Source: an uncultured Clostridia bacterium
GTDB taxonomy: Bacteria; Bacillota; Clostridia; Oscillospirales; Ruminococcaceae
NCBI GenBank assembly: GCA_947632025.1
Contig: CANRNN010000006.1
Location: 72,030-136,029 of the forward strand
Reading direction: 5' to 3'
DNA length: 64,000 nucleotides
The notes under the pieces were generated by a model. The model was not told the origin of the DNA and searched no databases. It saw nothing but the letters and a program-made list of their open reading frames with translations. The position numbers and the translations under genes are program-made. Shown one piece after another: positions 42,332 to 60,866 of the stretch (position 1 is the stretch's first letter; each line of letters starts with the position of its first letter).

Positions 42332-44050
42332 ATGAAATTGGACAAGTTGGTCGGTGACAGATTTAAGGAGCGTCCGTCAGACTGCCAGATAGATTCACAC
42401 GCGCTTATGGTGCGCGGCGGATATATCAAGTATGTCGCAAACGGCATTTACTCTAATTATCCTCCGCTAAAGCGCATAACGAGAAAGATCGAACAGATCA
42501 TTCGCGAGGAAATGGACGCAATAGACGGACAAGAGGTAATGTTCCCGGTGGTAATGCCCGCTCCGCTGTGGGAGGAGTCGGGAAGATACACAAGTATAGG
42601 CAGCGAGATGGTGCGTTTCACAGACAGAAACCGTCAGCCTATGGTACTGGGTATGACGCATGAGGAGGCAGCTGTGCAGCTCGTGCGCGAGTACGCAAAC
42701 TCCTACACAAAATATCCGTTTATGATCTATCAGATACAGACGAAATTCCGCGACGAGGCGCGTCCGCGCGGCGGTCTTATCCGCGTTCGCGAATTTACGA
42801 TGAAAGACGCGTATTCATTCCACACTTCTCAGGAGGATCTGGAGGAGTATTATCAGCGCGCACATAAGGCTTACGAGAAAATTTATAAGCGCTGCGGAGC
42901 AAAGGGAGTTATCTCCGTAAAGTCCGACAGCGGAATGATGGGCGGCAGCGTTTCCCACGAGTTTATGCTGCTGACGCCTATAGGAGAGGATTCTATCGCT
43001 ATCTGCAGGAAGTGCGGCTATACCGCGAATGTAGAAGCTGCAAAGTCCATAATCGAAAACGTCCGCGACGAAAATTCCGAAGCTCTTACCGAGGTGAATA
43101 CTCCGGACTGCCACACTATTGAGGAGGTGTGCGCGTTTTTGAAAGCCGCTCCCGAAAAGTCGGCGAAGGCTGTAGTTTATCAGAAAATTCCGGGCGACGA
43201 GTTCGTAATTCTGTTTATCCGCGGGGATCTGGACGTGAATGAAACAAAGCTTACGAATTTCCTCGGCTGCGATATCCGTCCTGCCGTAATTGACGAGGAG
43301 TGCGGTATTTGCGCGGGATTTATCGGTCCCGTAAACCTTAAGGTAAACGCGCCCTGCACCGTGCTTTTCGACGAGTCGTTAAAGAATCTCAACAACCTCG
43401 TCTGCGGCGCGAATAAGACCGATTTCCATATGACGGGACTTGATATGGAGCGCGATGTTCTGAACGCCGAATACCGCGATTTTGCGAAGATAATCGAGGG
43501 CGGTATCTGCCCCGAATGCGGCGAACACACTATTACCATTTCCCGTGGAATTGAAGTCGGGAATATCTTCCAGTTAGGAACAAAATACTCAAAGTCAATG
43601 GGTATGACCTACCTTGACGCAAACGGTGAGGAAAAAGTCCCGATAATGGGCTGTTACGGTATAGGCGTGGGACGCTTGGCAGCGTCGGTGTGCGAGGCTT
43701 CTCACGATGATTACGGTCCGATCTGGCCTATGGCGATAGCGCCGTGGCAGGTACATCTTTGCGCGGTGCGCCCCGACGACGAGCGCGTAAAGTCCGCCGC
43801 TGACAAGCTGTACAACGATTTGCAGGACGCGGGAGTTGAGGTTATTTACGACGACAGAAACGTCCGCGCGGGAGTTATGTTCTCGGACGCGGACTTGCTC
43901 GGAGTGCCGCTGCGGGTGGTAGTAAGCCCGCGAAACCTTGACGAGGGAGTATTTGAGCTTTCGTCGCGTGACAAGACGCTCTCCGAAAAGCTCGACCCGA
44001 ACAGCGCTGTGGAAAGGCTTAAAGAACTGATAAAACAGATGATGTCATAA
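42332..44050 (+). CDS. proS: Proline--tRNA ligase (with editing domain)
   Basis: GMTHEE, QIQTKFRDEARPRGGLIRVREF.MKDAYSF, GIEVGNIFQLG, MGCYGIGVGR. Confidence 0.98.
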   Translation: MKLDKLVGDRFKERPSDCQIDSHALMVRGGYIKYVANGIYSNYPPLKRITRKIEQIIREEMDAIDGQEVMFPVVMPAPLWEESGRYTSIGSEMVRFTDRNRQPMVLGMTHEEAAVQLVREYANSYTKYPFMIYQIQTKFRDEARPRGGLIRVREFTMKDAYSFHTSQEDLEEYYQRAHKAYEKIYKRCGAKGVISVKSDSGMMGGSVSHEFMLLTPIGEDSIAICRKCGYTANVEAAKSIIENVRDENSEALTEVNTPDCHTIEEVCAFLKAAPEKSAKAVVYQKIPGDEFVILFIRGDLDVNETKLTNFLGCDIRPAVIDEECGICAGFIGPVNLKVNAPCTVLFDESLKNLNNLVCGANKTDFHMTGLDMERDVLNAEYRDFAKIIEGGICPECGEHTITISRGIEVGNIFQLGTKYSKSMGMTYLDANGEEKVPIMGCYGIGVGRLAASVCEASHDDYGPIWPMAIAPWQVHLCAVRPDDERVKSAADKLYNDLQDAGVEVIYDDRNVRAGVMFSDADLLGVPLRVVVSPRNLDEGVFELSSRDKTLSEKLDPNSAVERLKELIKQMMS

Positions 44051-44124
44051 AATAAAATGCTCCCGAAGCCGCAAGGTTTTGGGAGTGTTTTTTTATAAAT
44101 AAAATTTACAGAAATTATTTACGA

Positions 44125-44802
44125 TTATTTACGAATGACCAGCAGTTTATTATCTCCTTTTTGAAATTCATATTTTGTCTGTTTTATTTCCACGTTATAA
44201 ATTTCAGTAAAATGCTTAATTACATCTGCCGTCAATTCGCTTTTGTTTGCGTCAAGGTCAACGATAGGGAAGATCCGGATCTCTTTGCAGACTCTCAGCA
44301 TTTCGGTCATTGCGCTAATATGAAAATCAAATCCGAGCATTGTGTACATCAGCAAAAAATGGGAGCTTAATCCTATGTCAAAATAATTATTTTCATATGG
44401 CAGTTTTTCGGGAAGCTCGTGATAAATGTATCTCTTTTCTGCCTTTCCTTTTTCATAATCCGTAAGGAAAAGGCGCATTGCGGACATTCGTCTGTTTTCC
44501 AGATCGTCAAGATTTTTGATATTTGTCCAAACGTAGTTTTCTGTATTCTCGCGCATTTGCTCCATAACAATTGTGCGCACTTCGTCGATGCGATTGCGGA
44601 GTTCATCGGCTGAAAACTGATAGATCGGATCAAAGGATGTCACGTTATATCCCTGCTTCGTTGCCTCATAGTTAAAGCTTGCGGGACCATCTCCAAATCC
44701 CGCAATTTTCTTTTTCAAATCTTCATCACTGAGATCAAACATAAGTTTGTACTCCGCGAAATTTCTTCCCCACGGAACAACGTTGTTTAACTGAAACGAC
44801 AT
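44125..44802 (-). CDS. Putative SAM-dependent methyltransferase
   Basis: IAGFGDGPASFN motif I-like; FDIGLSSHFLL..Y; EMLRVCKEIRIFP. Confidence 0.8.
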   Translation of the reverse strand: MSFQLNNVVPWGRNFAEYKLMFDLSDEDLKKKIAGFGDGPASFNYEATKQGYNVTSFDPIYQFSADELRNRIDEVRTIVMEQMRENTENYVWTNIKNLDDLENRRMSAMRLFLTDYEKGKAEKRYIYHELPEKLPYENNYFDIGLSSHFLLMYTMLGFDFHISAMTEMLRVCKEIRIFPIVDLDANKSELTADVIKHFTEIYNVEIKQTKYEFQKGDNKLLVIRK

Positions 44803-44992
44803 ATGTATGTTCCTCCATAAATATTGTTTTTCTGACGATTATAATTTCAAACAAATTTAATGTTATTATACCACATTTGAAAAAATCTGTCAATAGTATT
44901 CAGTCATAAAACATATCAAGGCGTTTGCCTTTGTTTTTTACATTATAAGCCTTATTTTTTCAAGTCGGGATAAAATGTTATTTCATCAAAGA

Positions 44993-45652
44993 TTATAAAT
45001 ATTCGACTTTGTTGCGTATAGATGTCGCGTTTTCCGAACTTACGATAATGTGGTCGTAAAGATCAATGCCGAACGCCTTAAAAATTTCGTTCAGCTCTTT
45101 TACGGAAATAATATCTTCTGCCGACGGAAGCGCCGGACCGTAAGGGTGGTTATGCGCCGTTATAACGATCGAAGCAGAAAACTTTTTTGCCTTATTGACA
45201 GTTTCATTAAACGTTACCGAATTCTTGTCCGGAAACGCGGACTCAAATACTTCGGCAAAAAGAGCTTTTCCCGAATCATCAAAAAATATTGCACACGAAC
45301 ATTCTATGGGTCTTTTTCCTATTGCATCTGAAAAGTATTTCTTTATCGACTCGCCTTGAGCGATGGTAATATCATTGCTCAACACACAGTCCTTGACCAA
45401 TGCGCAGCAGAATAAAATAAAATCTTTGTCACGCTTTGTCATTCCCGGAATTTTCGAATATTCATCAATATTCGCGTACAGGAAATTCATGACCGTGCCG
45501 AAATGCCGGATCAGCTTCTCGCATAGCTCGTTTCTTTTTTTGGAATCCACGAGCAAACGTTTCAAACGTTCTGTTTCTCTTTCTTGAGTTTCCTTATCAA
45601 TATGTATTATTGGAAGCGAATGAAACCCTTCATTAAAACTATCGGATTTCAT
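44993..45652 (-). CDS. RadC-like JAB-domain protein
   Basis: AHNHPYGPALPSAEDI...DLYDHIIV JAB/MPN motif. Confidence 0.88.
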   Translation of the reverse strand: MKSDSFNEGFHSLPIIHIDKETQERETERLKRLLVDSKKRNELCEKLIRHFGTVMNFLYANIDEYSKIPGMTKRDKDFILFCCALVKDCVLSNDITIAQGESIKKYFSDAIGKRPIECSCAIFFDDSGKALFAEVFESAFPDKNSVTFNETVNKAKKFSASIVITAHNHPYGPALPSAEDIISVKELNEIFKAFGIDLYDHIIVSSENATSIRNKVEYL

Positions 45653-45833
45653 AATATTTCTCCTTGCTCAATTTCTATTTTTACATTATACCATATATTG
45701 TTTCAATTTTCAATACTTTTTCAAAATGTAAAAATTCTACAAAATAACGGTTTTCACACCTTGCCGAACAACCTGCAAACACTCATACCTTTTGATTCCA
45801 CAGGCTGCTTGGATTGTGATAATCAGCCTCTAT

Positions 45834-46484
45834 TCACTTTTGGGATTTAAAATAGTGAACGCCAACTTCCATATCTTCCGGACGCTCCGGTTCGGGCTCT
45901 TTAGCTCCGTTTATTCGTCTTTCATTCCAATTCCCCCATTCTGTTGAATATTCGGTCTGAACATTGCTGTTAATGATATATATCCAGTCCAAACCAAGCT
46001 TTGTTTCATCGTCAGCAGCTGTAACAACACCTACCTTGAACCAATATAATGTTCCTTTATCAGTTGTAACATAAGTATTTGCAGAATATCCGGCGCTTAC
46101 CGTAACTCCGTTTCTTACAGAGCTGTAATCGCCTGATGCCCCGACATGCCGCATCTCAACAACTTTGCCGTCAAGAAAATTTACGAGTATTTCGATATCG
46201 GACATCATATCAAATTTGGTTTTATCATACTCACTGAACATATCAAAAATTGCCCTACTGTCTTTTGTTTCAACAAGTTCCAAAACCTCGTTAAACGTAT
46301 TAACAGCATACTCAAGCGGATATTTGTAAGGATTTGCCTCGTAATTCGCCGAAGCAGCCTCGGAAGCTGCTTCCCTGACCCTCCCAATGACGTCTGAAGC
46401 TAAATCTTTAATGCTTCTGCAGCCCGTCATAAGTAATAACGCCAAAATTGGGCAAGTCAATTTCAAAATCTTCCGTATATGCAA
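45834..46484 (-). CDS. Lipoprotein, DUF5104-like
   Basis: LLMTGC lipobox; VLELVETKDSRAIFDMFS...DETKLGL pattern. Family call is tentative. Confidence 0.65.
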   Translation of the reverse strand: MHIRKILKLTCPILALLLMTGCRSIKDLASDVIGRVREAASEAASANYEANPYKYPLEYAVNTFNEVLELVETKDSRAIFDMFSEYDKTKFDMMSDIEILVNFLDGKVVEMRHVGASGDYSSVRNGVTVSAGYSANTYVTTDKGTLYWFKVGVVTAADDETKLGLDWIYIINSNVQTEYSTEWGNWNERRINGAKEPEPERPEDMEVGVHYFKSQK

Positions 46485-46546
46485 AATTATATCCCCCTAT
46501 CGCCCTGTCCAAAGTATCCATTTAAAACGTCTTTAATTTAAACAAT

Positions 46547-47193
46547 CTAACTAAATGAATTGTAAAACGCATCTTCATTTCCAAATTCACTTTCGTTTGA
46601 AAAAGTTAAACTGCTTCCCAAACATATCACGGTTACTGTGTACCTTGTAAAAGGGATACTCTCTTTACAATAACAGTAAAAATCGTACAGCCATCCTAAA
46701 GATTTGGGGTTAGTACACTCACCATCGTAAATCACAAAACCTACGCCGCCATCGAATTGTGAAATATCCGCTTCAGGATTATTCTTAAAAAAAATTTGTA
46801 ATTGATTTGTATTGTAGCTGAATTTTGCGGTAATATTTCTTGATTCTGTAAACGGCTTGATATAGGTGTCGTAGAGTTGATGTTCCGCAAATGCACTCCG
46901 GTAACTATCAATTGTAATTTTTCCACGCTCAGCGAAAATTGAAAACCTTATCCGTTCAGATCAAAAACAAATTGATCATATCCGTTATTTTCAAAATTGA
47001 TTTTTGTTGTGCCATAGTGAGCCTCTATGAATTTAGCATCGGAGTAATTTGCGTTTATATATTCCAAAGCAGCCTGTTTGTTTTTTCGAGCCTCCTTCTG
47101 CCACGGAAATAAAAGGTTCACGTTGAAAATAGCACAAATTCCGATTGCAGCTGCCAATGACAGTAAAATTTTGATTAAAACCGTTTTCTTCAT
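46547..47193 (-). pseudogene. Frameshifted membrane-anchored hypothetical protein (~215 aa if repaired)
   Basis: ORF 46948-47193 (..FDLNG*) continues in a shifted frame (IRFSIFAERGKITIDSYRSAF..VIYDGECTNPKSLGWLYDFY..FS*) that is open to 46547. Confidence 0.7.
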
Positions 47194-47326
47194 ATGCCCC
47201 CTAATCTCCTATATATTTTAATACAGTGTTCTGCATTTGTGTAAACTTTATAAAAAGATTTTTTTGATCCGTCCCCATAATTAAATTATATCACATTTTT
47301 CAAGACCTGTCAACAACTTAATTTTA

Positions 47327-47423
47327 TTACACTCCAATCTCCATTCTCTGACCCTCGGACTCGCTCAAAGCGATGCTTTTCATATTTTATTGATTTATTA
47401 TCCGCCGGATAAGTATGAATTTA
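47327..47423. repeat. Downstream arm shared with 59822-59860 and 60197-60249
   Basis: TTACACTCC..CATTC.CTGACCCTCGGAC.CGCT and GCGATGCTTT.CATAT.TTATTGATTTA.TAT..GATAA..GAA.TTTA, overlapping the GNAT stop codon. Confidence 0.85.
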
Positions 47424-47864
47424 GATTTTCCGCTTCAGGTAAACCATATCTATCAGTTGCTTACCGCATTCGAATATTGGATGATTATAGTGCTCAACAA
47501 AGAAATTACTGACAATATGTGAGCGAACGAAACCGCAGCTCTCATAAAACGGGATCGTCAGCGGACTATCCCCCGTACCGACCTGTAAAACCGAATACTG
47601 CCCTTTGTACTTTTCCGCAACAAACTCAATCAATGCTTTGCCATACCCCATTCTTTTATATCCGGGTTCTGTTGCTATATTCTTTATCTCCAGAACGCCA
47701 TTTCCCTCATCTGTAACCACGCATTCAGCTTTTGCGCCGTCATTGATAAGAACATACATCGTTCCTCTGTCAAGATAGCTGTCGATCATATTCTCTTGTT
47801 CATCTGCCAATAACAGTAATGCAAGATAGTCTTTTTTATTTGTTTTTATCTCTTCGATCTCCAT
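47421..47864 (-). CDS. GNAT family N-acetyltransferase
   Basis: EIKNIAT.P.Y.RMGYGKALI, GTGDSPLTIPFYESCGF; start 47864. Confidence 0.92.
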   Translation of the reverse strand: MEIEEIKTNKKDYLALLLLADEQENMIDSYLDRGTMYVLINDGAKAECVVTDEGNGVLEIKNIATEPGYKRMGYGKALIEFVAEKYKGQYSVLQVGTGDSPLTIPFYESCGFVRSHIVSNFFVEHYNHPIFECGKQLIDMVYLKRKI

Positions 47865-47910
47865 TTCATACCTCAATAAATCCCGAATTATCGGTGGGCC
47901 TACGCCCTGC

Positions 47911-47985
47911 CCGACTGTATACAATTATACCACATTTTCCCCAAAAAAGCAAGCTCAAACGATTTTCGCATATCAATATTTAGAG
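47911..47985. repeat. Upstream promoter-bearing arm shared with 60744-60819
   Basis: CCGACTGTATACAATTATACCACA(T/C)TTTCCCC(A/G)AAAAAGCAAGC: 42/44 identical; contains minus-strand TTGCTT-17-TATAAT. Confidence 0.9.
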
Positions 47986-48205
47986 TCACGTAGCATTTAG
48001 TCAGCGTTTTCTGCCGTTCTAATAATTTCGTTCGCACGGTCTTTCTCAGGAATTATTGTTATTTCAGACATTTCATCAACTTCTTTCACAACACATTATA
48101 CCGTACAATTCAATAAATGCTTCGCACACGTCTTGGCGCAGTGCTCCTGTCGCTTTCTCCTTGTCAGGCTGCGCAAGGGAAAGTATCTGAAATACTGCTA
48201 TTCAA

Positions 48206-49084
48206 TTGTCAAAGAACATAAGGGGAGAATTTGCCCCTCTACTATATGGAGATTTACTCTTCGTTTTGTACACCCCTTTAGGAGATATTCCCGATGAATA
48301 TTTCGGACGGCTATATAACCTGAAATGGCTTCAGCTTGTGAGCGCGGGCGCGGACAGGATAATTTACGGGAACGCAATTTCCGATAAAACCGTTCTGACA
48401 AACGCTTCCGGTGCATTCGGAGAGGTTATTTCGAAATATGTCATCGGCGGCATTCTTTGCCTATTCCGCGATTTTTTCAGCTATCGTGAAAATCAAATCG
48501 AAAAGCACTGGCATGATACAAAAAACGAACGTATGATCTGCGGCTCGACAGCGTTGATTTTGGGCTGCGGGAATATCGGCAAATGCGTTCCAACTCGTCT
48601 GAGGGCATTCGGAGCAAAAACCGTAGGAGTTCGTCAAAGCCGTAAAAATGCCCTGAATTTGACGAAACATATCCCGTTGAGAAACTTGATATGCTGCTTC
48701 CGGACGCCGACATAATTGTCTGCACCCTGCCGCGGACGCCTTCAACGGAACATTTCTTAAACCGCGAGCGGCTTATGCTGATTAAAAATGACGCGGTTAT
48801 CGTGAACGTCGAGCGCGGAAATGTTATTGACACAAACGCGCTTTGTGAAAGGCTGAAAAGAGGAGAATTGTTCGGCGCGGTGCTTGACGTTTTCGAGAAC
48901 GAACCGCTTGAACATAATTCACCGCTGTGGGATATGAAAAACGTTTTTTGTCACTCTGCATATTTCGGGGAAATCGTTCGGTCATTCTGAAAGAACCGAA
49001 AATCTGATAGCACAGATCTGTGAAGAAAATCTAAGGCGGTTTGTAAACGGAAAACCGCTTGTAAATATAGTTAAACAGAAATAA
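48206..49084 (+). pseudogene. D-2-hydroxyacid dehydrogenase, frameshifted
   Basis: LQLVSAGAD, ILGCGNIG, DIIVCTLP.TPSTEHFL, VNVERG, AVLDVFENEPL, then TLHISG..NLRRFVNGKPLVNIV* across at least three frames. Confidence 0.85.
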
Positions 49085-49132
49085 ATTTGAAATTTGTTTT
49101 TAAGGAGCCCATTTCAGAGGAGGTAAACTACA

Positions 49133-49315
49133 ATGTCAGGAAAACCGTTATCACACGAAGTCACAAAGGAAAACGGCTTCAAAAAGCCCGACCGTGTTGA
49201 CAGACATCCGCGTTCAAACAATAATGAAACTTCGGGATCGGATAACAGATCCTCTAATTATCTGCCTGACCCGAACGATGGATTGCACAAGCCGAAAATC
49301 GTACCATGGAAGTAA
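49133..49315 (+). CDS. Small hydrophilic 60-aa protein, hypothetical
   Basis: Strong GAGGAGGT RBS; MSGKPLSHEVTKENGFKKPDRVDRHPRSNNNETSGSDNRSSNYLPDPNDGLHKPKIVPWK. Confidence 0.65.
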   Translation: MSGKPLSHEVTKENGFKKPDRVDRHPRSNNNETSGSDNRSSNYLPDPNDGLHKPKIVPWK

Positions 49316-49543
49316 ATGATGACAATATATCCGGCGGGCAAAAACACCGTGAAATAATAATTCATCTTGTTTTTTGTTTTGTGAAGAAAGTCAACTCCCG
49401 CTTCCGCAGATATTTTCGTTGAAATGCCCATAAATGCAACTTTCAATTTGAAATAATTCAAAAAAACCACAATAAATTAAGAAATTTTGTGCATAATGCC
49501 CTAAAATTTGCAATTTTATTTTGAAAATCTGTTAAAATAGTGC

Positions 49544-49629
49544 TTGACATAATATTCTCTTTGTGATATAATAAAGGTGTAAAGCAAGGGCGCTTTGGCG
49601 GATCTCCGTCAAGGCGCCCTTTATTTTTT
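49544..49629 (+). promoter_or_regulatory. SigA promoter plus ANTAR-type hairpin overlapping an intrinsic terminator (attenuator)
   Basis: TTGACA(49544-49549)-17-TATAAT(49567-49572); AAAGC-[AAGGGC]-GCTTT hairpin (49581-49596); 16-bp terminator stem 49586-49621 followed by TATTTTTT. Confidence 0.75.
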
Positions 49630-49647
49630 GAAAAGAGATGAATTTTT

Positions 49648-50967
49648 ATGAACACGCCTGTTGCAAACTCAAAGGAAATAAACGAGCTTCTGGCACGCTA
49701 TGGCGTAAAATTCGGGATTTACAAAAACGGAAATTTCCACGAACAGCTTTTCCCGTTTGACGCGATACCCCGCGTTATTTCAGCATCGGATTTCTCTGAG
49801 CTTGAAAAGGGGCTTATTCAGCGCGTCGATGCGCTGAATATGTTTTTGAGGGACGTTTATTCCGACAAGAAGATAATTGCCGACGGGGTCGTTCCCGAAG
49901 ATTTTGTTTACAGCTCAACGGGTTTTTTGCAGCAATGCGACGGGGTGCTGCCGCCAAAGGGCATATACAGTCACATTTCGGGTATTGATTTAGTTCAGGC
50001 AAAGGACGGCGTCTGGTATATTCTTGAGGATAACCTTCGCATACCGTCCGGCGCGTCCTATCCGCTTATAGCGCGCGAGCTTTGCCGAATGACAAGTCCC
50101 GATGTTTTCCGTGAGGCTAAGGTGCGCGACAACAGAAATTATATTGCACTGCTCCGCGAAACGATGAATTATGTAAACTGCGGCGGGATAAACGTTATAT
50201 TGACACCCGGAAGATATAACGCCGCATATTTTGAACATTCCTATTTCGCGGAGAAAACGGGAGCTGCGCTGGTTCAGAATTCCGATTTGTTTGTGGAGGA
50301 CAATATTCTCTATCTTAAGGATTATCAGAACGGAAAAACGCGCGTGGGAGCGGTCTACCGCAGGATCTCGGACGAATATCTCGACCCGCTTACGTTCCTG
50401 CCGGAGTCGCTTATCGGAATTCCGCATATTATGGACGCGTACCGCGCGGGAAATGTCGCGCTGATAAACGCTCCCGGAAACGGCGCTGCCGACGACAAGG
50501 GAATTTACTATTTCGTGCCGAAGATGATAGAGTACTATCTCGGCGAAAAGGCAATTCTGAAAAATGCGCCGACATATCTGCCGTTCTATGAAAACGACAG
50601 GAAGTATGTCCTCGATAACCTTGAAAAGCTGGTTATAAAGGACGTTTCGGAGGCGGGCGGCTACGGCGTTGTGTTCGGCTCGGATATGACCAAAGAGCAG
50701 CTTGCCGACTGGCGAAAGCTGATAACAGAGCAGTCCCGCCGGTTTATCGCGCAGGAGGTGATAGATTTCATTGACCTGCCGATAACGGACGAGCAGGGAA
50801 ATACCACGCTGCACAAAGCGGATCTCAGAGCCTTTGTGCTTTCCGGGGAAACCACAAGGGTATGGTGCAGCGGACTTACAAGATTTTCACGGAATGTTGA
50901 CTCATTTGTAGTCAATTCATCGCAAGGAGGAGGCTTTAAGGATACATGGGTACTATCACAAGAATAA
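49648..50967 (+). CDS. Circularly permuted type-2 ATP-grasp protein
   Basis: QRVDALNMFL.DVY, ISGIDLV, LEDNLRIPSGASY, YRRISDEYLDP, NAPGNGAADDK, GGYG, FIAQE, DLRAF, VVNSSQGGGFKDTWV. Confidence 0.95.
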   Translation: MNTPVANSKEINELLARYGVKFGIYKNGNFHEQLFPFDAIPRVISASDFSELEKGLIQRVDALNMFLRDVYSDKKIIADGVVPEDFVYSSTGFLQQCDGVLPPKGIYSHISGIDLVQAKDGVWYILEDNLRIPSGASYPLIARELCRMTSPDVFREAKVRDNRNYIALLRETMNYVNCGGINVILTPGRYNAAYFEHSYFAEKTGAALVQNSDLFVEDNILYLKDYQNGKTRVGAVYRRISDEYLDPLTFLPESLIGIPHIMDAYRAGNVALINAPGNGAADDKGIYYFVPKMIEYYLGEKAILKNAPTYLPFYENDRKYVLDNLEKLVIKDVSEAGGYGVVFGSDMTKEQLADWRKLITEQSRRFIAQEVIDFIDLPITDEQGNTTLHKADLRAFVLSGETTRVWCSGLTRFSRNVDSFVVNSSQGGGFKDTWVLSQE

Positions 50968-51659
50968 ACATAAACAATCTTTTCTGGCTTGGGAGATATA
51001 CGGAGCGTGTGTTTATAACGCTTAATTCGTTTTTCAGGTTCTCGGACAAAATTATCGAGCAGGGCGGGGAGTTTTACGGGAAATATCTCGAAAACATAAG
51101 CGTGCCGAATATTTACAAAAATTCCGACGACTTTTTCGACCGTTATGTGTTTGACGAAAATGACCCGAATTCTATTTATTCAAATCTTTTACGCGCTTTA
51201 GGAAACGGCATTGTACTTCGCGAGGAAATTAAAACTCCGTCGCTGTCGTATCTGCAAATGGCTGCGGACAGGTTCAAGTCCTGCCGCGGTACGGACAAGA
51301 TACGCTACGACCTGCTGCCCGTCCGCGACGCAATTTACGCGTTCTGGGGGAGCGTCGACAGCAATATGACCGATTTTGACGCGCTGAAAATAATTCACCT
51401 CGGCAAGTCCGTGGAGCATGTTGATATGTCGCTTCGGCTCTCTTTGCCGGAGGAGGAAACCTTTGTCGGGCTTCAGAACCTTGTAAAGCACGTTGAGCGT
51501 TATATCGGGCAAAGCGGCTGTATCATAAACAAAGTGGCTCTTTCGGCTTTGAAAGCCGCACTTGCTGTTCCCGAAAAGCTTGACGAAAACAGAAGCGCGC
51601 TTATCACGAATGTTGAAGAGCTTATAGAGGTGAATTTCCTTGAAACGGTTGCGGTTTGA
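50946..51659 (+). CDS. Alpha-E domain protein (DUF403-like)
   Basis: NLFWLGRYTER, PNSIYSNL..A..N....RE, LGKSVEHVDM.LRL; overlaps the ATP-grasp stop. Confidence 0.9.
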   Translation: MGTITRININNLFWLGRYTERVFITLNSFFRFSDKIIEQGGEFYGKYLENISVPNIYKNSDDFFDRYVFDENDPNSIYSNLLRALGNGIVLREEIKTPSLSYLQMAADRFKSCRGTDKIRYDLLPVRDAIYAFWGSVDSNMTDFDALKIIHLGKSVEHVDMSLRLSLPEEETFVGLQNLVKHVERYIGQSGCIINKVALSALKAALAVPEKLDENRSALITNVEELIEVNFLETVAV

Positions 51660-52419
51660 ATATTCCGCGCGGCTGGAATTTGCGGAAAGCGTGTCGGAGC
51701 ATTGTTTCACGCTGCGCTGTCTGCCCGTATCCGACGGCAGACAGCTTATCCGCGAGCCGCAGTATGAAATTTTTCCGCTTGAAAACAGCAAAATATGGCT
51801 TAGTCGCGACAGTTTCGGGAACACTTTGCTTTGCGGAAGAATTCCCGATCCGCACAACATTTTTTCGTTTCACGTTTCGGGGAAAGCCGAGATAATAAAC
51901 ACGCGGGATATTTCCGGGTTTCCCGCGGCGATTTACGGGTACAGCTCTCCGCTTGCAAAGCCGGGGGATTTTATCCGAAAATTTTACAGCGAAAACACCC
52001 CGACGGCAGAATTGCCGATTGACCGCGCAATGGAGCTTTGCAACGCGCTTTATAACTCGATGAAATACGAAAAGGGAGTTACAAACGTGCATACCGCGGC
52101 TGAGGACGCTTTGAAACTCGGCGCGGGCGTTTGTCAGGACTATGCGCATATTTTTTTAGCGCTTTGCAGGCTGGACGGAATCCGGTGCAGATACGTTTCG
52201 GGTCTGGCATTTGAAAGCGGGGAAACTCACGCCTGGACGGAAGTCGGCAGCGGCTCTCGGTGGTACGGCGTTGACCCCGCAAACAACAGATTTATCGGCG
52301 AAAATTATATAAAACTCTGCCACGGCAGAGATTATTCCGATTGCCCGATAGAATGCGGGATCTATCTCGGAAATTCTTCGGGCGTTCAGACGGTAACGTC
52401 GTCTGTTGCCGAATTTTAA
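51640..52419 (+). CDS. Transglutaminase-like protein with Bact_transglu_N domain
   Basis: GVCQDYAHIF (Cys), HAW (His), GVDPAN (Asp) triad; GRDYSDC. Confidence 0.93.
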   Translation: MKRLRFEYSARLEFAESVSEHCFTLRCLPVSDGRQLIREPQYEIFPLENSKIWLSRDSFGNTLLCGRIPDPHNIFSFHVSGKAEIINTRDISGFPAAIYGYSSPLAKPGDFIRKFYSENTPTAELPIDRAMELCNALYNSMKYEKGVTNVHTAAEDALKLGAGVCQDYAHIFLALCRLDGIRCRYVSGLAFESGETHAWTEVGSGSRWYGVDPANNRFIGENYIKLCHGRDYSDCPIECGIYLGNSSGVQTVTSSVAEF

Positions 52420-52431: not shown

Positions 52432-53376
52432 ATGATAGAAGCGGTCACACGGGCGGGACTTGCGGTAAACGAAAATATAGTTATAAAGAAAAACCGTATA
52501 GTCGGCTCTGACAATAAAAATCCTTCCGGAAAAAGAGTTTGTATCGTCACGGGAACGCACGGCGACGAGCTTGAAGGGCAATATGTCTGCGCGAAACTGT
52601 CAAACGTTCTGCAAAATAATTTGACGCTGTTAAACGGGACGGTTGATATTTATCCCGCGCTTAATCCCTTGGGGGTTGATTCAATTACGCGCGGAATACC
52701 TCTGTTTGACCTCGATATGAACCGCATTTTCCCCGGAAGCGCGGACGGCACTATGGCGGAGTGCCTTGCCGCAGACATAATCGCCGATATAAGCGGCGCG
52801 GATATCTGTATAGATATTCATTCGAGCAACATTTATTTGAGAGAAATTCCGCAGGTGCGGATAAACGAAATTACCGCCGACGAGCTTATTCCTTATGCAA
52901 AAATGCTGGGGTGTGATTTTATCTGGGTTCACGCGTCGGCAACGGTCCTTGAATCCACGCTTGCATACAGCTTGAACAGCATCGGCACGAAAACGCTTGT
53001 CGTGGAAATGGGCGTCGGAATGAGGATCACCTGCGAATACGGCGACAGACTGACGGAGGGGATCTTAAATCTTCTCAAAAATCTCGGAATGTGGAAAGGC
53101 GACTGCAAGCCCGTAAAAGAGCCGATTGTGTCCGCGGACAGAGCGGTGGAATTTGTAAATTCGGGAGCGGCGGGGATATTTATTCCGACTGCAAAGCACT
53201 GGTCGAACGTTAAATGCGGCGATGCCGTGGGGAGCGTTATTGACCCCGTCACGGGCAACGTCGAGGAATATGTGACTTCTCCCTGCGACGGGATAATTTT
53301 CACGCTTCGTGAGTTTCCGATAGTGTACGGCGGGTCGCTTATTGCGAGAATTTTAGGGGGTGACGAAAATGCGTAA
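52432..53376 (+). CDS. M14 succinylglutamate desuccinylase/aspartoacylase-family peptidase (catalytic residues intact)
   Basis: GTHGDE, NPLG, DMNRIFPG, DIHSS, VEMG; C-terminal barrel-sandwich region. Confidence 0.9.
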   Translation: MIEAVTRAGLAVNENIVIKKNRIVGSDNKNPSGKRVCIVTGTHGDELEGQYVCAKLSNVLQNNLTLLNGTVDIYPALNPLGVDSITRGIPLFDLDMNRIFPGSADGTMAECLAADIIADISGADICIDIHSSNIYLREIPQVRINEITADELIPYAKMLGCDFIWVHASATVLESTLAYSLNSIGTKTLVVEMGVGMRITCEYGDRLTEGILNLLKNLGMWKGDCKPVKEPIVSADRAVEFVNSGAAGIFIPTAKHWSNVKCGDAVGSVIDPVTGNVEEYVTSPCDGIIFTLREFPIVYGGSLIARILGGDENA

Positions 53377-54295
53377 AAAGACGTTGTATTCCCTGAAATC
53401 CCCCTACCGTGAGAGTATGGATATAATCGGTTTTCAGTTTGGTCACGGCGAGAAATCAATGTGCGTTATCGGCGCTATGCGCGGCAATGAAGTCCAGCAG
53501 ATGTATGTCTGCTCACAGCTTGTAAACCGCCTAAAATGCCTTGAAAGCGAGGGGCTGATTGCCGAAAACCGCGAGATTATGATAATCCCGTCCGCTAACT
53601 ATTATTCCATGAATATCGGAAAACGTTTCTGGACAATGGACAACACGGATATAAACCGAATGTTTCCCGGTTACGACCTTGGGGAAACCACACAGCGAAT
53701 TGCCGCGGGAATTTTCGAGAGCATTAAAGGCTATAAATACGGCGTTCAGCTTGCGAGTTTTTATCAGCAGGGCGATTTTCTGCCGCACGTCAAACTTATG
53801 GAAACAGGCTTTACCGACCACGAGCTTATGAAATGTTTCGGGCTGCCGTTTGCGTTTATCCGAAAGCCTCGTCCTTATGATACTACAACCTTGAATTATA
53901 ACTGGCAGATTTGGGAAACACAGGCGTTTTCGCTTTACACAAACGCCACCGATAACATTGACGAACCGTCCGCAAAACTTGCGGTAGACGCGATCTTAAG
54001 GTTTATGGCGGCGAACGGCGTTATAAAAACAAAAGTCCCCGGAGGATACATTACCGAAATGTTGGACGAAAAATCTCTCGTGCAGATACATTCGCCTGCC
54101 GCGGGGATTTATAAGAGTTTTGTCCGCACCGGCGACGAATTCAGAAAGGGCGACGTTTTGTGCGAGATAACCGACCCCTTGGACGGGAGCGTTATCCGTA
54201 AAATTTCCGCGCCTTCGGACGGAATTGTTTTCTTTCGATATAATCGTCCGCTGGAGTTTGAAAAAACCGTACTGTATAAAATTATACCTATTTAA
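53369..54295 (+). CDS. M14 desuccinylase/aspartoacylase-family paralog, probably inactive
   Basis: GAMRGNE, DINRMFPG, GVQLAS and FSLYT where the paralog has H..E, DIH and VEMG. Confidence 0.85.
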   Translation: MRKKTLYSLKSPYRESMDIIGFQFGHGEKSMCVIGAMRGNEVQQMYVCSQLVNRLKCLESEGLIAENREIMIIPSANYYSMNIGKRFWTMDNTDINRMFPGYDLGETTQRIAAGIFESIKGYKYGVQLASFYQQGDFLPHVKLMETGFTDHELMKCFGLPFAFIRKPRPYDTTTLNYNWQIWETQAFSLYTNATDNIDEPSAKLAVDAILRFMAANGVIKTKVPGGYITEMLDEKSLVQIHSPAAGIYKSFVRTGDEFRKGDVLCEITDPLDGSVIRKISAPSDGIVFFRYNRPLEFEKTVLYKIIPI

Positions 54296-54485
54296 TTAAG
54301 TAAAAACAGCAAACAGGCTGTAATTTGACTTTATGTACAAGCTGGGTATTATCATTGCAGACGGACGTGGCAATTGTCGCGGCTCTGGGATTTGATAATA
54401 TATAAATAAAAGTTATGAACAGCACGGCAAAACGCAACGTTAAAATGCCTTTGCAAAGGAATTTCTTCTAAGTCGAACGAAAACA

Positions 54486-54515
54486 AAACGTCCCGCAGGA
54501 GCCTGCGGGACGTTT
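54486..54515. terminator. Strong inverted repeat, likely bidirectional terminator
   Basis: AAACGTCCCGCAGG-ag-CCTGCGGGACGTTT. Confidence 0.75.
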
Positions 54516-54960
54516 CAATGCAAGGCATTGTCCTGCCGTGTAACTTTTACAAAAAATATTTGTTGATGTTTTGTATCTCGTAATAATAAAATAACACATT
54601 TTCAAGATTTGTCAATACCATAAAATTAAAATATGATAGCTATAAAATATCGGGTGTAATACATTCAAAAATAAACATTTTTACAACTAATCTCAATATG
54701 ATGAAATTTGTAGGCATTTCAAATCGGAATTTTGGGGTTCATATTTCATTCTTTTTGATTATTATCCGAATTTTTAGTTGTTTTAATTTTAGTGTCCATT
54801 TTGAAATAAAGAATACCTTGCCTGCAGAATCGCCTGTAAAAGGAATTATAGCAAAACGCCTGTCGCTTTCAGAGTTGAGTGGGGACAGATTGCGACAGGT
54901 GTTCACAACGAATCAGCAGTTGTCAAAACCATATGTTTCAAATTATAATAATTAATTCAC

Positions 54961-57900
54961 TCAATTAAAGTTTAATTCTCTGCGAAGTTGTTGTATAGTT
55001 TTAAATGTAATTTCTTTATTATTGCTCAAGTAACTTTTTCTTTTGGAATCTGCCCAATATGAATCAGGAATTTTAATCAATAATTCCTTAATATCATGTA
55101 TTCCAGGAACAGCAACGATTTCAAAATCCTCAGTATATAGAATGCTCCACCCACTTATAGCGCCATTATAGTAATCAGGGTAAATATCCTTTAGCGATTC
55201 TACATATTCTTGCTGTTCTGTTGTTAAATTTGATGTGATAAAAGCATAAATCAGATACGACCTATCATATGACAATCTTCTATTAAATGGAACAAAATTA
55301 TAATATTTTCCGTTCAATAAATCCCTTATACGATATTCGTTTGGATGATAACGAGAGTACATGATATTTCCAAATATACTTAGCGAGTCAACTTCATATA
55401 AAAATCTAATATCGTTGTCGTTAATTTTCCCTTTGATAATATTACCTTTGACAAAGGACTTATTGTTTTCAGCAAGCAGGTTGAAAAAATCGGTATTTAC
55501 CATCGGTAGTAGTGAATTCACAACATTGTAGTGATGATAATCAGTTTGTGAAAATCTGCCTTTCTGTAAACCATACTAGTATAGTCGTCAAATCTGTTTC
55601 TAATTATTTGTTCTTCAATTTTGAACTTTGGTGAATATAGAACAACCTCATTTTGACGCAATACAATTTCTTCCGATGACGCTATTTTATTAGCAACAAT
55701 AACCTTAAAGAACGGCGTTGACATTAAGTAATTTATATTTGTTTTGATGATGATATTTTCCACTGTAAGAAAATCCGACAATGAAATATTGCTGCAAATA
55801 TTATCGGATAAATCGCTCCAGAAAATATTTTGCGGTTTGCGTCCCAGATAGTATGCAATGTAATCCCAAAGAAATCTCCTCGACGTAAAATAGTAGGTCC
55901 ACATTATGTCGGATATATGGGATTTGTATTCATTCGGAACAGTTTCTAAATATTCGCAAATACAGTGTATTTCATTATCAACGACCTTAAAAAATAACAT
56001 CTCTGTTTCATCTACAAGCTGCGTTGGAACGCTTATTATATTTCTGTGGTCGATACTCAATTTCGGACGCACTTCTCCTATAAAATTCAACGTAAAATCT
56101 GTGTCGTAGTTGGTGGGTAATTTCATATTTCGGCTTAACTGCACAGTTATGCCGTCAATTAAAAAACCCGATTTATGAAACTCTAAAATCCGATAAAAAA
56201 GCAAACTTTCGGCGTTTATCGGCTTGGAATAATCTTTAGGAAAGTATAAAATGTTGCGGTATTGCAGGTTTTGGGTGTCTACAAAAATTTCTTTTCTTAC
56301 AACATTGTCTTCAGATAGGGAATTAATGATGCTGCTGAAATCATGATATTGGTATGAATATTTTTCTGCAACTTTTTTGCATGTCATATCTATCAATTTG
56401 ATTGTATTCAGATTTATAAAAAAGTAAGAGCCGCTTTTATACGAAGCCTTATATTTGGAACATTCTCCGGTACATCTTGAAAATATATTGATGCTTGGAG
56501 GACAAAGCTTAATGTATCTTGTCAGTATCGTGAGAAAATACTTTTTCTCTTGTTGATTAATTTTATAATTTCTTTCAGAGCCTTCTTCGTATAAAGAATA
56601 CATATCTAAAAACAATTCCCATTCCTTACAGTGGGTACTTCGTTCGGATGTTGACTGATACATAAGTATATCGTTTAATGTTTTCTTATTTGGTATTTCA
56701 TCAGAAATATTATCATCTTTTAAGAATAATTTGACAATTGTACCCGAATTTTTAAGGCGTTCAGCGTCGTCAAAAAGAGGGGTTGAAAAATATAAGTATT
56801 CTTTTTTCCCGTCTAAAGTTAGGCAAATGACATCGGAATTATTTTTTTTGGTTGTTATCTCTATTAAATCGCATAACATAAAGCACGACAAAATGCCTAT
56901 TCCGAATTGTGAAATAGGGTAAAATTTTTTGGAAGATTCCGCGCGCATTTGATAAAAATCGGCAGAAGAATAGAAGGTATGTCCTATATGTAAAAGGTAG
57001 TTCGTTATTATTGACTTATCCATTCCAATACCGTTATCATAACAATATAAATATTTTCGTTCTTTACCATGTTTAGTGCATACATCAATTCCAAATTCAA
57101 TATTCCCAATAAAGTCAGGCAAATTTAATTGTTTACACCAGCATGCGTCAAGAGAATTTTGATATAATTCTCGAATACAAGCATATTTGTCTTTATATAA
57201 TTCTTCGCTCATCAGCAAATCAATAATGTTGGATTGATCCATTTTTATACATAAATCATCAGCCGGAATAAACTCTTTAGAACAAGACGTAACCCCTTTA
57301 GCATTGATTTTGTTGTTTATATTAAGTCCAAGCTGGTTGAGCCTATTGCATTTTTGCAGATTTAATAATTCGCCTTCAACATATTTAATATAGTCTTTTA
57401 AGAAGTAATACTCTTCCGGATTTTCACAAGGAGAATATGCATTTATTACAACATTACCCCCATTGTTGTTTATTACAAAATTAAACCCTGTAAGTTTAGA
57501 ACTCAGTGAATATTGTTATTTGTCCCTTTTTCATAGCTTAATGAATAAGATACTCTGTCCGACCCGAAATGAAGTGCGTCTGCAACTCTTAACATTGCAG
57601 CGACAAACAATAAATCAGCTTTTTCGTTTTCAAAATATTTTCCTGAAAGCTTCTGAATTTCATTTTGTGCTTCATCAAAATTTATGCCGTGAGAAAAGCA
57701 TAATTCCCCAAAAATTTGAGAAAACAATTTGCTGTAATTATGCAATTTTTCCCTGTCAAATTTTTTCTAAATTTATGCAGTAAATTCTGCTTAATTTGGC
57801 ATGATTTGCTCTTATATATTCTTTGCGAATTTGCGTGTTGATTTTATCAGCATTTGTATCAGACAATTTGTTTTTTAACTGCGGAAGCCTGCCGCTACGA

Positions 57901-58478
57901 TATTTGTGATAATCTATAGCGAGCATGGCTAAATGCTCTGTAAACATTCCTTCGTTCTGAAATCCAAAGATAAGATGCTGTTCATATCTATTTGAACTTA
58001 AAAGATTTCCATATAATTTTGTTTTAAAATTATTTATATATCCCTCCATCCATTTCTGCGTTATTTTTCCTTTTCCATCCAAACCGAACTTAGGCACAGA
58101 TAAATTTTCATCTTTGCCTTCGCAAGCAATCAATACGTTTAATTCCCTGTTCTGATATTGCCATGCTGCAGTCATGTAATAATGCGGTCATATACAGAAA
58201 AAAAGCTCCATAGTAGAGAGCTGCGCTATTTTATCGCCCAAAATCTTTTCCATGTTCATTAATACAGATCGGCTATGATCTATATTATGCGAGTCAAACT
58301 CCGGGGAAAAGCGGCAAATTTGTTGTAAATGATTAATTACATCCGGTTCAATTCTACCTATAAAATCGATCAATTCTTTTACATTGCTGTTATTTGTACT
58401 TCTGAATTTCAATTCATCAATAATTTTACCTTCCATAATGTCCTCCATAAAACAGAAATTATCGCATATATTATCCAA
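54961..58478 (-). pseudogene. HD-domain (HD-CE-like) + Hsp90/HtpG-like GHKL ATPase fusion, ~1170 aa if repaired
   Basis: Fragments in order: PEFDSHNIDHSRSV; LLHDCSM (58176-58171, a frame absent from the track); YIRANH; CFSH..LRVADALH; SPCENPEEYYFLKDY in frame with IRELYQNSLDAC, DNGIGM, ISQFGIGILSCF, GTIVKL; C-terminal piece 54961-55521. Confidence 0.8.
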
Positions 58479-58488
58479 TAAGCCATAG

Positions 58489-59543
58489 TTATAATTTTAC
58501 TATTGCCTGACCAATTATTTTCATAAGTGCTTTTCTATTTTCTATAACAACATTCTTTCGTTCGTTAGAAAGGTCAAATGGATATTTATGCAAAAAATTA
58601 TCAGAAACCACATGTAAATATGAGAATTTTATGTTTGTATTTTGTGCTGCGTAAGCCATATGACCTATCTCTGGATCAACAAAAGAGTATTCTTGACATG
58701 AATCCTCAACCCATTGTTTCGTTTCTTGTAAAACAGATGGAAGCGTTAAATGCTTTCCAAATCTAATATGCTCGTTTGAAGCTGTATCAAACATATTATT
58801 TCATGTAACAATTTCTCCATTTGGAAGAAGACTTACATTTCCTGTTGCAATAATTTCGTTAGGTACATATGAAGAATTAAGCGTTCCAAGTTTTCCGGAA
58901 TATATTATTTGTTTTACTCCAATCGAGGATAAAAAAAGAAATAATTCTACCAGCAATTTCACCCCAATAAGTATGTTTACATCCAAGTAATATTGCATTT
59001 CCCGACTTAATCTTTATTTGTTTGTATAAAAAATTTCCTCTTCCTTTCCATTCTTTATCATCTGATAGGAAATCAAGCCCTTCAACATAGCCCATTAAAA
59101 CTTATCAACTTTAGGAATATCGTTAAGTGAAGAGTTACAAATTTCATTCCAACATTGTTCCTCACTTGGTATTTCGCTTATAATATGGATATCTTTTTTA
59201 ACAGACTTGAAAAAGTAGAATAAATATTGCTATAATGATAAATATAATCAATTCCTGGGAAACACCTTATCTCTGCCTTATCGTCTATGATTTGTACTGT
59301 AGGCCTCATAAAATTAAAAAACTTCCCACCCTTTTCGTTTTCTGAGATACCGTTACTCCTATCAAAACATCCAAACACTCTTATTTGACTGATTTTTTGA
59401 AAATTTATAGAAGAATTTATTTTCATTTCTAAATATGACAATAATGAATTTCCCATAGAATGTATTTCTGCTGACATTTTAAGTGGAAAAAAATAATTAT
59501 TGTTATAGGGCAAAGGGTAAGCATACATATACAGCATCTCCAA
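58489..59543 (-). pseudogene. Nucleoside phosphorylase (PNP_UDP)-fold protein, fragmented (~350 aa if repaired)
   Basis: Fragments: ILLGCKHTYWGEIAG; IIYSGKLGTLN..PNEIIATG; HLTLPSVLQET..FVDPEIGHMA.AA...YLHVVSDN; frameshifts plus an in-frame TGA at 58803-58801. Confidence 0.72.
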
Positions 59544-59821
59544 TTTTTAATATGTTTAGACCTAATCAAATTTGATATTCATTATAAAGATATGATAATA
59601 TATACAATTATCCTTCGCTATCATTTATAACTATTATATCACACAATTCCCTAAAAGTCAACAAAAAAATTAAGGCTTTGCGCAAGATGTAAAAATCCTG
59701 CGAAAATGCAAAATTTGTTTGTGGAATTAGCTAATTTTCAAGCATATTTTTGTGCAATTTCACAAATGAGAGCTTTCGCGATTCCAACCCTTGTGATCTG
59801 TACTGCAGCAAACCCATTGAC

Positions 59822-59860
59822 TTACACTCCCATCGTCATTCCCTGACCCTCGGACCCGCT
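59822..59860. repeat. Downstream arm, distal part (homologous to 47327-47365)
   Basis: TTACACTCC..CATTCCCTGACCCTCGGACCCGCT; minus frame encodes ..SEGQGMTMGV*. Confidence 0.8.
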
Positions 59861-60196
59861 TTCATCCTCATTGAGATCCTCATCACATCGACTTCCTCGG
59901 TTTCTTCCTCAGACACGCTCACAGCGGCTGATTCGCGCTGTTCCTTTTCAGTCGATTGAATTAACAGCAGCTCATAAAGCTACAGAGAAATTTCTATCTT
60001 CAAATTATCGCTCCTCTCCCATATTTATTTGAATGTTAGATCCTTTAACCTGTATTGATATGCGTTTTTTTGTTGTTTGCAACAATTTGTCCAATAATCT
60101 TTCCATGCTGCTGTATCGTCATATTTCACCAACTTGAAATCCTATTGTTCAAGAGCTGCTACACCTGCAAAATTGCATGAAAAAGCACCGCTTAGT

Positions 60197-60249
60197 GCGA
60201 TGCTTTCATATGTTATTGATTTACTATTTGCTTGATAAATGGAAATTTA
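60197..60249. repeat. Downstream arm, proximal part (homologous to 47370-47423)
   Basis: GCGATGCTTTCATATGTTATTGATTTACTAT..GATAAATGGAAATTTA, includes the GNAT stop codon. Confidence 0.8.
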
Positions 60250-60702
60250 TGCTTTTTCCATATATACAAATTGAAGCTCATCATTGATTACTTTGATATC
60301 AAAAATTTTATATCCTAAACTTTGATATAAACGAATATTATCTTTGCTTCTCGTGCTTGTAAAAAGCTCATATCGCTTATCTGGGAAGTATTCTTCTATT
60401 TTTTTAATTAGCCTTGTGCCATAACCATTGTGTCTGTAGTTAGGGTGAACCATTAGTTTTCCAATGTATACTGTTCCCTTAGCTTCTTTTGCACGGACTG
60501 AACCAATGATAGTATTTTCATCATTATACATTTTGAGTATAACACCATTATTATATTCGTCTACTACCTCATCCAGTGTTTGCTTTAGCGGTGGAATATC
60601 CCTCCCAAAGAGTGCTGCTTCGCTTTGATAGGAAAAATATTGAAGTTGTAATATTTCCTGCAAATCATCAATGTTCGCTTGACATATCTTCAATATAAAC
60701 AT
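60247..60702 (-). CDS. GNAT family N-acetyltransferase
   Basis: YIGKLMVHPNYRHNGYGTRLI, NIRLYQSLGY; start 60702 or TTG 60693. Confidence 0.92.
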   Translation of the reverse strand: MFILKICQANIDDLQEILQLQYFSYQSEAALFGRDIPPLKQTLDEVVDEYNNGVILKMYNDENTIIGSVRAKEAKGTVYIGKLMVHPNYRHNGYGTRLIKKIEEYFPDKRYELFTSTRSKDNIRLYQSLGYKIFDIKVINDELQFVYMEKA

Positions 60703-60743
60703 CCCCCTCCAAAATTCAATTTGTAGGTCAGTCTTAAACGTAA

Positions 60744-60819: not shown

Positions 60820-60866
60820 CAGTATTTAATTGTAAAAGTGTGACAAAAAACTTCCGCTTAAAATAT

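Follow-up and report, generated by a model that had tools for sequence, protein, structure and literature searches.

The operon that begins with a circularly permuted ATP-grasp (cpATP-grasp) gene at position 49648 is preceded by a compact leader in which a small hairpin, P1, carries an A1/G4 hexaloop and shares its nucleotides with the 5' arm of an intrinsic terminator. Coordinates refer to the window, by which we mean the whole 64,000 nt stretch of DNA that was analysed. We propose that the leader is a switch in which an ANTAR-domain protein holds P1 and prevents termination under nitrogen limitation, a reading to which we assign a probability of roughly 0.7. As the same switch lies before ammonium-transporter and glutamine-synthetase genes, the ATP-grasp operon very probably belongs to a nitrogen-starvation regulon. 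An earlier note on this DNA had assigned the operon to a nitrogen regulon through an ANTAR-type attenuator, and the presence of the same module before amtB-glnK, a type III glutamine synthetase (GS-III) gene and a P-II/permease operon supports that assignment at the level of sequence comparison.

The putative target of the switch comprises five genes on the forward strand. The first encodes a circularly permuted ATP-grasp type 2 protein of 439 aa (49648–50967; PF14403, E 4.9e-136; PF04174), and is followed by genes for an Alpha-E domain protein of 237 aa (50946–51659; PF04168, E 2.9e-14), a transglutaminase-like protein of 259 aa (51640–52419; PF01841, PF08379) and two AstE/AspA-family (succinylglutamate desuccinylase/aspartoacylase-like) hydrolases of 314 and 311 aa (52432–53376 and 53360–54295; both AstE_AspA_cat, PF24827). 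The five genes overlap or abut and so form one operon, with the cpATP-grasp, Alpha-E and transglutaminase-like core together at 49648–52419. No Anbu (proteasome beta-like) gene was found in the operon, the remaining two genes being the PF24827 hydrolases. The flanking regions (44000–49500 and 54300–64000) have a GC content of 32–40%, compared with 49% for the operon, and contain few long ORFs; the genes there encode RadC, DUF5104 and GNAT proteins, and 48206–48715 is a truncated fragment of a 2-hydroxyacid dehydrogenase gene. This low-GC, ORF-poor context suggests that the operon may sit among decayed or mobile DNA. The window also contains two Rfam matches, a class A RNase P RNA (5109–5452, reverse strand, 268 bits) and a T-box leader (34475–34687, forward strand, 106 bits).

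A sigma-70 promoter is located at 49544–49572 (TTGACA at 49544–49549, a 17 nt spacer, TG at 49564–49565 and TATAAT at 49567–49572). It scored 12 of 12 consensus matches plus an extended −10 in a promoter scan, and is kept in orthologous ATP-grasp leaders. Judged from the spacing to the −10 element alone, the TSS is predicted at about 49579–49580, which would make P1 the extreme 5' end of the RNA. Beyond TATAAT, the leader consists of AAAGGUG, U-AAAGC-[AAGGGC]-GCUUU-G (49580–49597), GCGGAUCUCCGUCAAGGCGCCCUU to 49621, UAUUUUUU and GAAAAGAGAUGAAUUUUU, and ends at the ATG at 49648. A purine-rich ribosome-binding region (GAAAAGAGAUG) and the start codon of the first gene occupy 49630–49650, and GAAAAGAGATG of the ribosome-binding region is kept in relatives. 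The whole leader folds to −30 to −32 kcal/mol (z −5.4 to −7.4).

The predicted terminator spans 49586–49629. Its stem of 16 pairs, 10 of which are G-C, joins 49586–49601 to 49606–49621 across the loop AUCU (49602–49605) and is followed by the U tract TTTATTTTTT at 49620–49629. The folding energy of about −30 kcal/mol (z=−7.4) was equalled by none of 200 shuffled sequences, and RNAalifold recovered the terminator from 11 species with compensatory changes in 6 of 12 consensus pairs. P1 (49580–49597) is formed by UAAAGC (49580–49585) and GCUUUG (49592–49597), which enclose the hexaloop AAGGGC (49586–49591) with A1 at 49586 and G4 at 49589; the stem is 5–6 bp long with its core at 49581–49596. The terminator 5' arm is built from the P1 loop and the P1 3' arm. 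Nucleotides 49586–49597 are thus common to both, and the two structures are therefore mutually exclusive, with the terminator as the default. Both the AAAGC-[AAGGGC]-GCUUU stem-loop and its overlap with a 16 bp U-tailed terminator had been recognized in the earlier note, and the overlap is conserved with covariation.

Related genomes provided a comparative view of P1. The operon was present in 15 of 61 of them, and the orthologous leaders retain the promoter, an NNGC[AARGGY]GCNN motif and the U-tailed terminator. We aligned P1 from 32 leaders of ATP-grasp, amtB and P-II genes. Invariant positions were A1, G4 and the closing C-G pair; A2 was at least 90% conserved, double changes occurred at five of the six stem pairs and 88.6% of cells were paired. 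None of 500 shuffles reached the observed pairing and covariation, and pairing collapsed to 23–41% when the partner columns were slid as a control. Compensatory versions of the stem include AAAGC/GCUUU in this genome, GAAAC/GUUUC in G030 and G032, AUAGC/GCUAU, and UGGC/GCCG in G049, a member of a different family. On this comparative evidence, the P1 hairpin is under selection, beyond chance.

These data bear on the simplest alternative, that the leader is unregulated, with the strong hairpin acting as a constitutive or leaky terminator or marking where a short RNA ends, and with a 5' flank whose pairing is accidental or reflects local conservation. On its own, P1 is weak (−4.7 kcal/mol, with 17 of 200 shuffles folding equally well), and much of the flanking sequence is common to close relatives, as such an explanation would have it. 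However, the three-way covariation between the P1 5' arm, the shared segment and the terminator 3' arm reaches other families and non-orthologous genes. Moreover, invariance of the loop bases contrasts with free drift in the distal part of the terminator, both stem and loop, among orthologous leaders. We therefore consider an unregulated leader very improbable.

It is equally improbable, in our judgement, that AAAGC-N6-GCTTT acts as the DNA operator of a dimeric repressor, beside an independent terminator that is constitutive or leaky. The 16 bp palindrome lies at +1 to +18, a frequent repressor position, and a second conserved palindrome, TGTYA-N10-TGACA, occurs in orthologous −35 regions. 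Against this, the half-sites vary by compensation (AAAC/GTTT, GGC/GCC, GAC/GTC) around a conserved, asymmetric 6 nt centre, which is the opposite of what a DNA operator would show. The element also always overlaps the terminator arm, and it is found 10–100 nt from promoters and in tandem copies that each have their own terminator. The TGTYA-N10-TGACA palindrome itself covers the −35 element (49528–49549) and is conserved in the ATP-grasp promoters of the genus (loci L003–L012). It resembles a TnrA/GlnR box with a spacer of 10 rather than 7 nt, and could be a DNA-level control layer.

Two RNA-level readings of the loop were also considered. A CsrA-type loop was rejected, since its GGA is not kept throughout: the loops include AAGGGC, AAAGGC and AACGAG. 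Direct sensing of a small nitrogen metabolite by a minimal riboswitch would account for a conserved loop in competition with a terminator, an arrangement that resembles an expression platform. Nevertheless, an element of 20 nt with a 6 nt loop offers no plausible ligand pocket, and the leader matched no Rfam family beyond noise, at the gathering cut-off or at E ≤10; we regard direct sensing as very improbable.

The ANTAR reading of the leader has to accommodate the number of hairpins. The ANTAR dual-hexaloop signature was defined by Ramesh in 2012 as two tandem hairpins with A1/G4 loops (PMC3369931), and removal of either hairpin abolishes antitermination and induction by EutV (PMC3369931, PMC8934654). 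The ATP-grasp site, by contrast, has one hairpin, a departure from the published two-hairpin requirement that counts against the ANTAR reading. The earlier note had already allowed that the site may be single-hairpin, while listing a weaker AU-[AAAGGU]-GU loop directly upstream that would be transcribed from an extended −10 at 49530–49538. Neither element held up: the loop has two pairs, falls within the −10/TSS region (49571–49580) and is missing from orthologous leaders (for example TATAATAAGAATA and TATAATAAACTTA), and the upstream −10 shows no conservation as a −10. With this loop spurious, one hairpin remains. No second A1/G4 hexaloop was found in the ATP-grasp leader, either here or in 11 aligned species, and 38 of 49 attenuators at 45 loci had no further hexaloop candidate, the remainder looking like chance. 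A search of the ATP-grasp terminator tips gave no hexaloop of this kind, the loops there being AUCU, UUUU, UUAAUU and similar. More recent structural work is relevant to this point. In the crystal structure of EutV bound to RNA, the ANTAR dimer contacts a single hexaloop, and the minimal binding motif was redefined as one hexaloop (Walshe 2022, PMC8934654).

The recurrence of the module in the same genome ties it to nitrogen genes. We scanned for C-closed A(A/G)NGNN hexaloops on stems of 3 bp or more for which a downstream segment, ahead of a T run, is complementary to the loop and 3' arm together. The scan returned 24 sites with a hexaloop and an overlapping terminator, and a perfect TATAAT lay 5–10 nt upstream of exactly four of them: the ATP-grasp operon (C6:121615, window 49586), the GS-III gene on C7 (GAAAC[AACGGC]GUUUC), the amtB-glnK fusion on C5 (CAUAGC[AACGAG]GCUAUG) and a P-II gene with an amino-acid permease gene on C18 (AAAGC[AAGGGU]GCUUU). 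A genome-wide look for the motif before glnA and amt genes had been suggested in the earlier note, and it is before GS-III and amtB-glnK that the module was found. With a P1 covariance model, the ATP-grasp site ranked among the top three matches in its own genome at 25 bits, all three being training sequences; the next match scored 20 bits, and both it and the other lower matches sit in coding-like regions without a terminator. Scanning the genome for dual hexaloops followed by a T run gave only unrelated, non-recurrent matches.

Three further loci of this genome deserve mention. The P-II/permease operon (C18 1–3500, 43.7% GC) adjoins a gene resembling, by resemblance only, a TraG/VirD4-type coupling protein, and none of 60 relatives has an orthologue of its P-II gene; it is possible that the operon was horizontally acquired together with its leader. 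At about 227270–227400 on the reverse strand of contig C1 (G000), TTGACA-17-TAAAAT is followed 4 nt on by AAC[AGAGCC]GUU and about 75 nt on by a strong terminator. No ORF lies downstream, where the sequence is coding-like on the opposite strand. This element could be a small RNA whose hexaloop is ANTAR-like, and it might serve as a decoy in the manner of EutX/Rli55. Finally, GGGGGC[AAGGGU]GCUUCC and a weak U-rich stretch occur at 56100–56150 on the forward strand of contig C10, between genes that by appearance resemble an ABC substrate-binding gene and a permease, and this hairpin may represent the same regulon at a site inside an operon.

In relatives, P1-model matches precede genes for GS-III, AsnA, an M20 amidase and a hydantoinase, with a consensus promoter directly upstream, the terminator overlap and one hairpin in each case. 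The amtB leaders are of particular interest. Among 20 species of the genus, 12 have a second A1/G4 hexaloop hairpin, P2, 9–13 nt after P1. The P2 loops are AAUGGC, AACGGA, AAAGGC, AACGAA and AAAGGU, and the P2 stems covary (CUUC/GAAG, AUCUC/GAGGU, GGCUC/GAGCC, GAUC/GAUC). These dual leaders are built differently from the eut leaders, with P1 at the base of the terminator, which it overlaps, and P2 as the terminator tip. The P1 hairpin of the G018 amtB leader, AAAGC[AAGGGA]GCUUU, is one loop base off the ATP-grasp P1. The hairpin pair of the congeneric amtB leaders is the published ANTAR dual-hexaloop signature (PMC3369931). P2 is degenerate in the clade of this genome (G000, G014, G003, G015), and is absent throughout from the ATP-grasp, GS-III, asnA and P-II leaders. 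ANTAR regulons on P-II, amt, glutamine synthetase and glutamate synthase genes were predicted in 2012 with a two-hairpin model, and the target list in Table S2 of that study has no ATP-grasp or transglutaminase entry (PMC3369931).

To gauge breadth, we examined 320 nt upstream of 80 cpATP-grasp loci from named genomes. The P1 and terminator module was present at about 45 of them, in Oscillospiraceae, many Lachnospiraceae and Anaerovibrio, and its carriers include Ruminococcus albus KH2T6, R. flavefaciens and Anaerovibrio slackiae. The association of operon and module across families is therefore old and widespread. Terminator tips at the cpATP-grasp loci are tri- to octaloops without the A1/G4 pattern. 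Tandem one-hairpin attenuators 70–80 nt apart, each with its own terminator, were seen at four cpATP-grasp loci (L130, L131, L135, L142) and likewise at two GS-III loci (L231 in G039, L243 in G052); serial attenuators of this kind would multiply the regulatory ratio. A literature search for nitrogen-dependent transcriptomes of Ruminococcus albus yielded nothing usable.

The candidate trans-acting antiterminator of P1 is an ANTAR-domain protein of 185 aa, consisting of a probable pseudo-receiver and an ANTAR domain, encoded at 16810–17367 on the reverse strand. Its PF03861 match (residues 128–180) scores 57 bits against a cut-off of 27.3. The earlier note had singled this protein out as the only ANTAR protein in the window and suggested a trans link to the ATP-grasp operon, a link that is at present a prediction; it is also the only one in the whole genome, the single PF03861 match in a 2.36 Mb, 100% complete assembly. 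The gene is the last of a split glutamate synthase operon (22599–16810) whose other products carry GATase_2, Glu_synthase, Pyr_redox_2 and GXGXG domains. The closest solved relatives of the protein are Rv1626 (E 6.6e-15), AmiR (E 1e-5) and EutV, and NasR is also homologous. In one pairwise alignment with Rv1626, 'AVIVSTPL' is placed over 'DLVIMDVKMP', with Ser at the position of the phospho-acceptor Asp, and in this same single alignment the N-terminus 'ILINART' is without the acidic pair. A Response_reg Pfam search of the protein gave no match at E ≤0.001. With Ser in place of Asp and no acidic N-terminal pair, the protein looks like an AmiR-type pseudo-receiver.

The surroundings of the ANTAR gene have regulatory features of their own. 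The glutamate synthase operon has its own 12/12 promoter (22633–22605, reverse strand) and a leader of about 170 nt. Within 22430–22633 on the reverse strand, the competing hairpins UUCGGGAA...UUCCCGAA and CCCG-AAAA-CGGG were noted, together with GCGGAA...UUCCGC; this leader has no P1-type hexaloop and no U-tailed terminator, and inspection of 22430–22600 for P1 was likewise negative. A third 12/12 promoter (16602–16574, reverse strand) lies just downstream of the ANTAR gene and shares TATAATAAAGGTG...CAAGGG with the ATP-grasp promoter. It is followed, in the region 16270–16602 on the same strand, by a leader of about 110 nt, a 30-codon ORF at about 16462–16370 (MLLSIAYCYDVVKNENSAESIESLLNSYFD) and two terminators; neither P1 nor an attenuator was found in the region of this promoter. 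No AmiC/NasS-like partner gene adjoins the ANTAR gene.

We then considered the distribution of the module relative to ANTAR genes. An ANTAR gene is present in all 15 relatives with the operon, and in a broader profile in 47 of 50 operon-bearing genomes, whether or not the leader is present, which renders that profile uninformative. The GS-III leaders were more discriminating. In other families, a P1 attenuator before GS-III (or an asnA-glnN operon) was present in 9 of 14 ANTAR-positive genomes, compared with none of 7 ANTAR-negative genomes (p=0.007, uncorrected for phylogeny). Outside the genus, amtB-P-II fusions occurred in 8 of 24 family representatives, and all eight were ANTAR-positive, as against 15 of 24 overall (p=0.009, uncorrected for phylogeny). 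At least nine of the profiled genomes have an ANTAR gene near GS-III or amtB, with both on one contig. Incomplete MAGs account for several of the ANTAR-negative congeners in which the leader is retained. Outside the genus, the P1 covariance model did not separate ANTAR-positive from ANTAR-negative genomes, because the model is genus-trained and scores outside the genus at chance level; a match in the ANTAR-negative genome G038 has no terminator after it.

The same observations allow an alternative binder to be weighed. P1 could be a genuine antiterminator that is bound by some other RNA-binding factor belonging to the nitrogen network, either a P-II-associated factor or an unrecognized protein. 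In favour of this, the second hairpin needed by characterized ANTAR proteins is missing from the leaders of the ATP-grasp, GS-III, asnA and P-II genes, the operon of the ANTAR gene itself has no P1, and the presence of an ANTAR gene does not tell cpATP-grasp operons with the leader from those without it. On the other hand, a hexaloop with invariant A1 and G4 is what marks ANTAR targets (PMC3369931), and in congeneric amtB leaders this P1 has a second A1/G4 hexaloop as its partner. In addition, the GS-III leaders follow the ANTAR profile, and no alternative candidate binder co-occurs. We consider a different binder unlikely, and favour the ANTAR protein.

The switch would operate as follows. 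Transcription would start at about 49579, and the first ~20 nt of the RNA could fold into the weak P1 hairpin. By default, P1 (−4.7 kcal/mol) would be outcompeted by the terminator (−30 kcal/mol), and RNA polymerase would halt in the U tract at 49620–49629 after making about 50 nt of RNA. When nitrogen is limiting, the single ANTAR protein of the genome, which is NitR/AmiR-like, would bind the A1/G4 hexaloop as it emerges and lock P1. The terminator would then fail to nucleate and the five-gene operon would be transcribed, together with amtB-glnK, GS-III and P-II/permease.

This putative mechanism can be compared with known ANTAR systems. As in the eut leaders of Enterococcus faecalis that are bound by EutV/EutW, we see a short stem, an A1/G4 hexaloop, a conserved closing pair and exclusivity with a terminator, and the genome encodes a protein of about 190 aa with a receiver-type and an ANTAR domain. 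Unlike the eut leaders, the ATP-grasp leader has one hairpin instead of two, predicted to lie at the extreme 5' terminus of the RNA, and the terminator is overlapped by this hairpin rather than by a downstream P2. Unlike EutV, the regulator appears from one alignment to have no phospho-acceptor Asp, and so would not be a member of a two-component system; its putative targets belong to nitrogen assimilation and not to ethanolamine utilization. The proposed system also resembles AmiR/AmiC of the Pseudomonas aeruginosa amidase operon and NasT/NasS, where an ANTAR regulator with a non-phosphorylated pseudo-receiver relieves a promoter-proximal terminator of a nitrogen-related operon. By analogy, control through a protein partner is probable here also. 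The differences from these two systems are that the ANTAR gene ends a glutamate synthase operon and that the RNA site is a single hexaloop.

NitR is a small ANTAR protein linked to glnA/gltAB in solventogenic Clostridium and a proposed antiterminator of nitrogen genes. Like NitR, the ANTAR protein studied here is encoded inside an ammonium-assimilation cluster of a member of the Clostridia. To our knowledge, the target RNAs of NitR have never been defined at comparable resolution. Here, by contrast, comparison of RNA leaders delimits the putative regulon, of which a cpATP-grasp operon is one member.

For the operon itself, the closest precedent is the Anbu operon of Pseudomonas (PMC3235984, PMC5666114), which has the same three-gene core. 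Valas & Bourne 2008 (PMC3235984) and Fuchs 2017 (PMC5666114, citing Hervas 2008) report the homologous P. putida operon to be among the genes most induced under nitrogen limitation, which fits the placement of the ATP-grasp operon in a nitrogen regulon. Nitrogen limitation would be the input common to both operons, predicted in our case from the shared leader. The two differ in that Anbu is replaced by two AstE/AspA-type hydrolases, and in that control would be exerted by RNA attenuation here and, presumably, by NtrC/sigma-54 in Pseudomonas.

These comparisons lead us to a broader proposal, which we advance tentatively and at slightly under even odds: that one hexaloop at the 5' end of a transcript suffices for co-transcriptional ANTAR antitermination, that P2 is an optional affinity anchor kept mainly on amtB, and that a non-phosphorylatable NitR/AmiR-like protein runs the whole nitrogen-limitation regulon, including the cpATP-grasp system, in many gut and rumen Clostridia. 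We would then have, in the leaders of the ATP-grasp, GS-III, asnA and P-II genes, natural one-hairpin ANTAR switches whose hairpin is itself the antiterminator. A 20 nt RNA and a 185 aa protein would make a very small system in which to address the question of one versus two hairpins, on which the genetics and the structure of EutV differ, and a one-hairpin class would improve searches for ANTAR targets, which now demand two hairpins. Our analysis also predicts nitrogen limitation as a testable physiological context for the cpATP-grasp/Alpha-E/transglutaminase system, itself originally a comparative-genomic prediction, in agreement with the hint from Pseudomonas putida and via an unrelated regulatory mechanism in the Firmicutes. 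If this is true, phyla that are unrelated would use the system in nitrogen starvation, with NtrC as its regulator in Pseudomonas and an ANTAR protein in that role in Clostridia.
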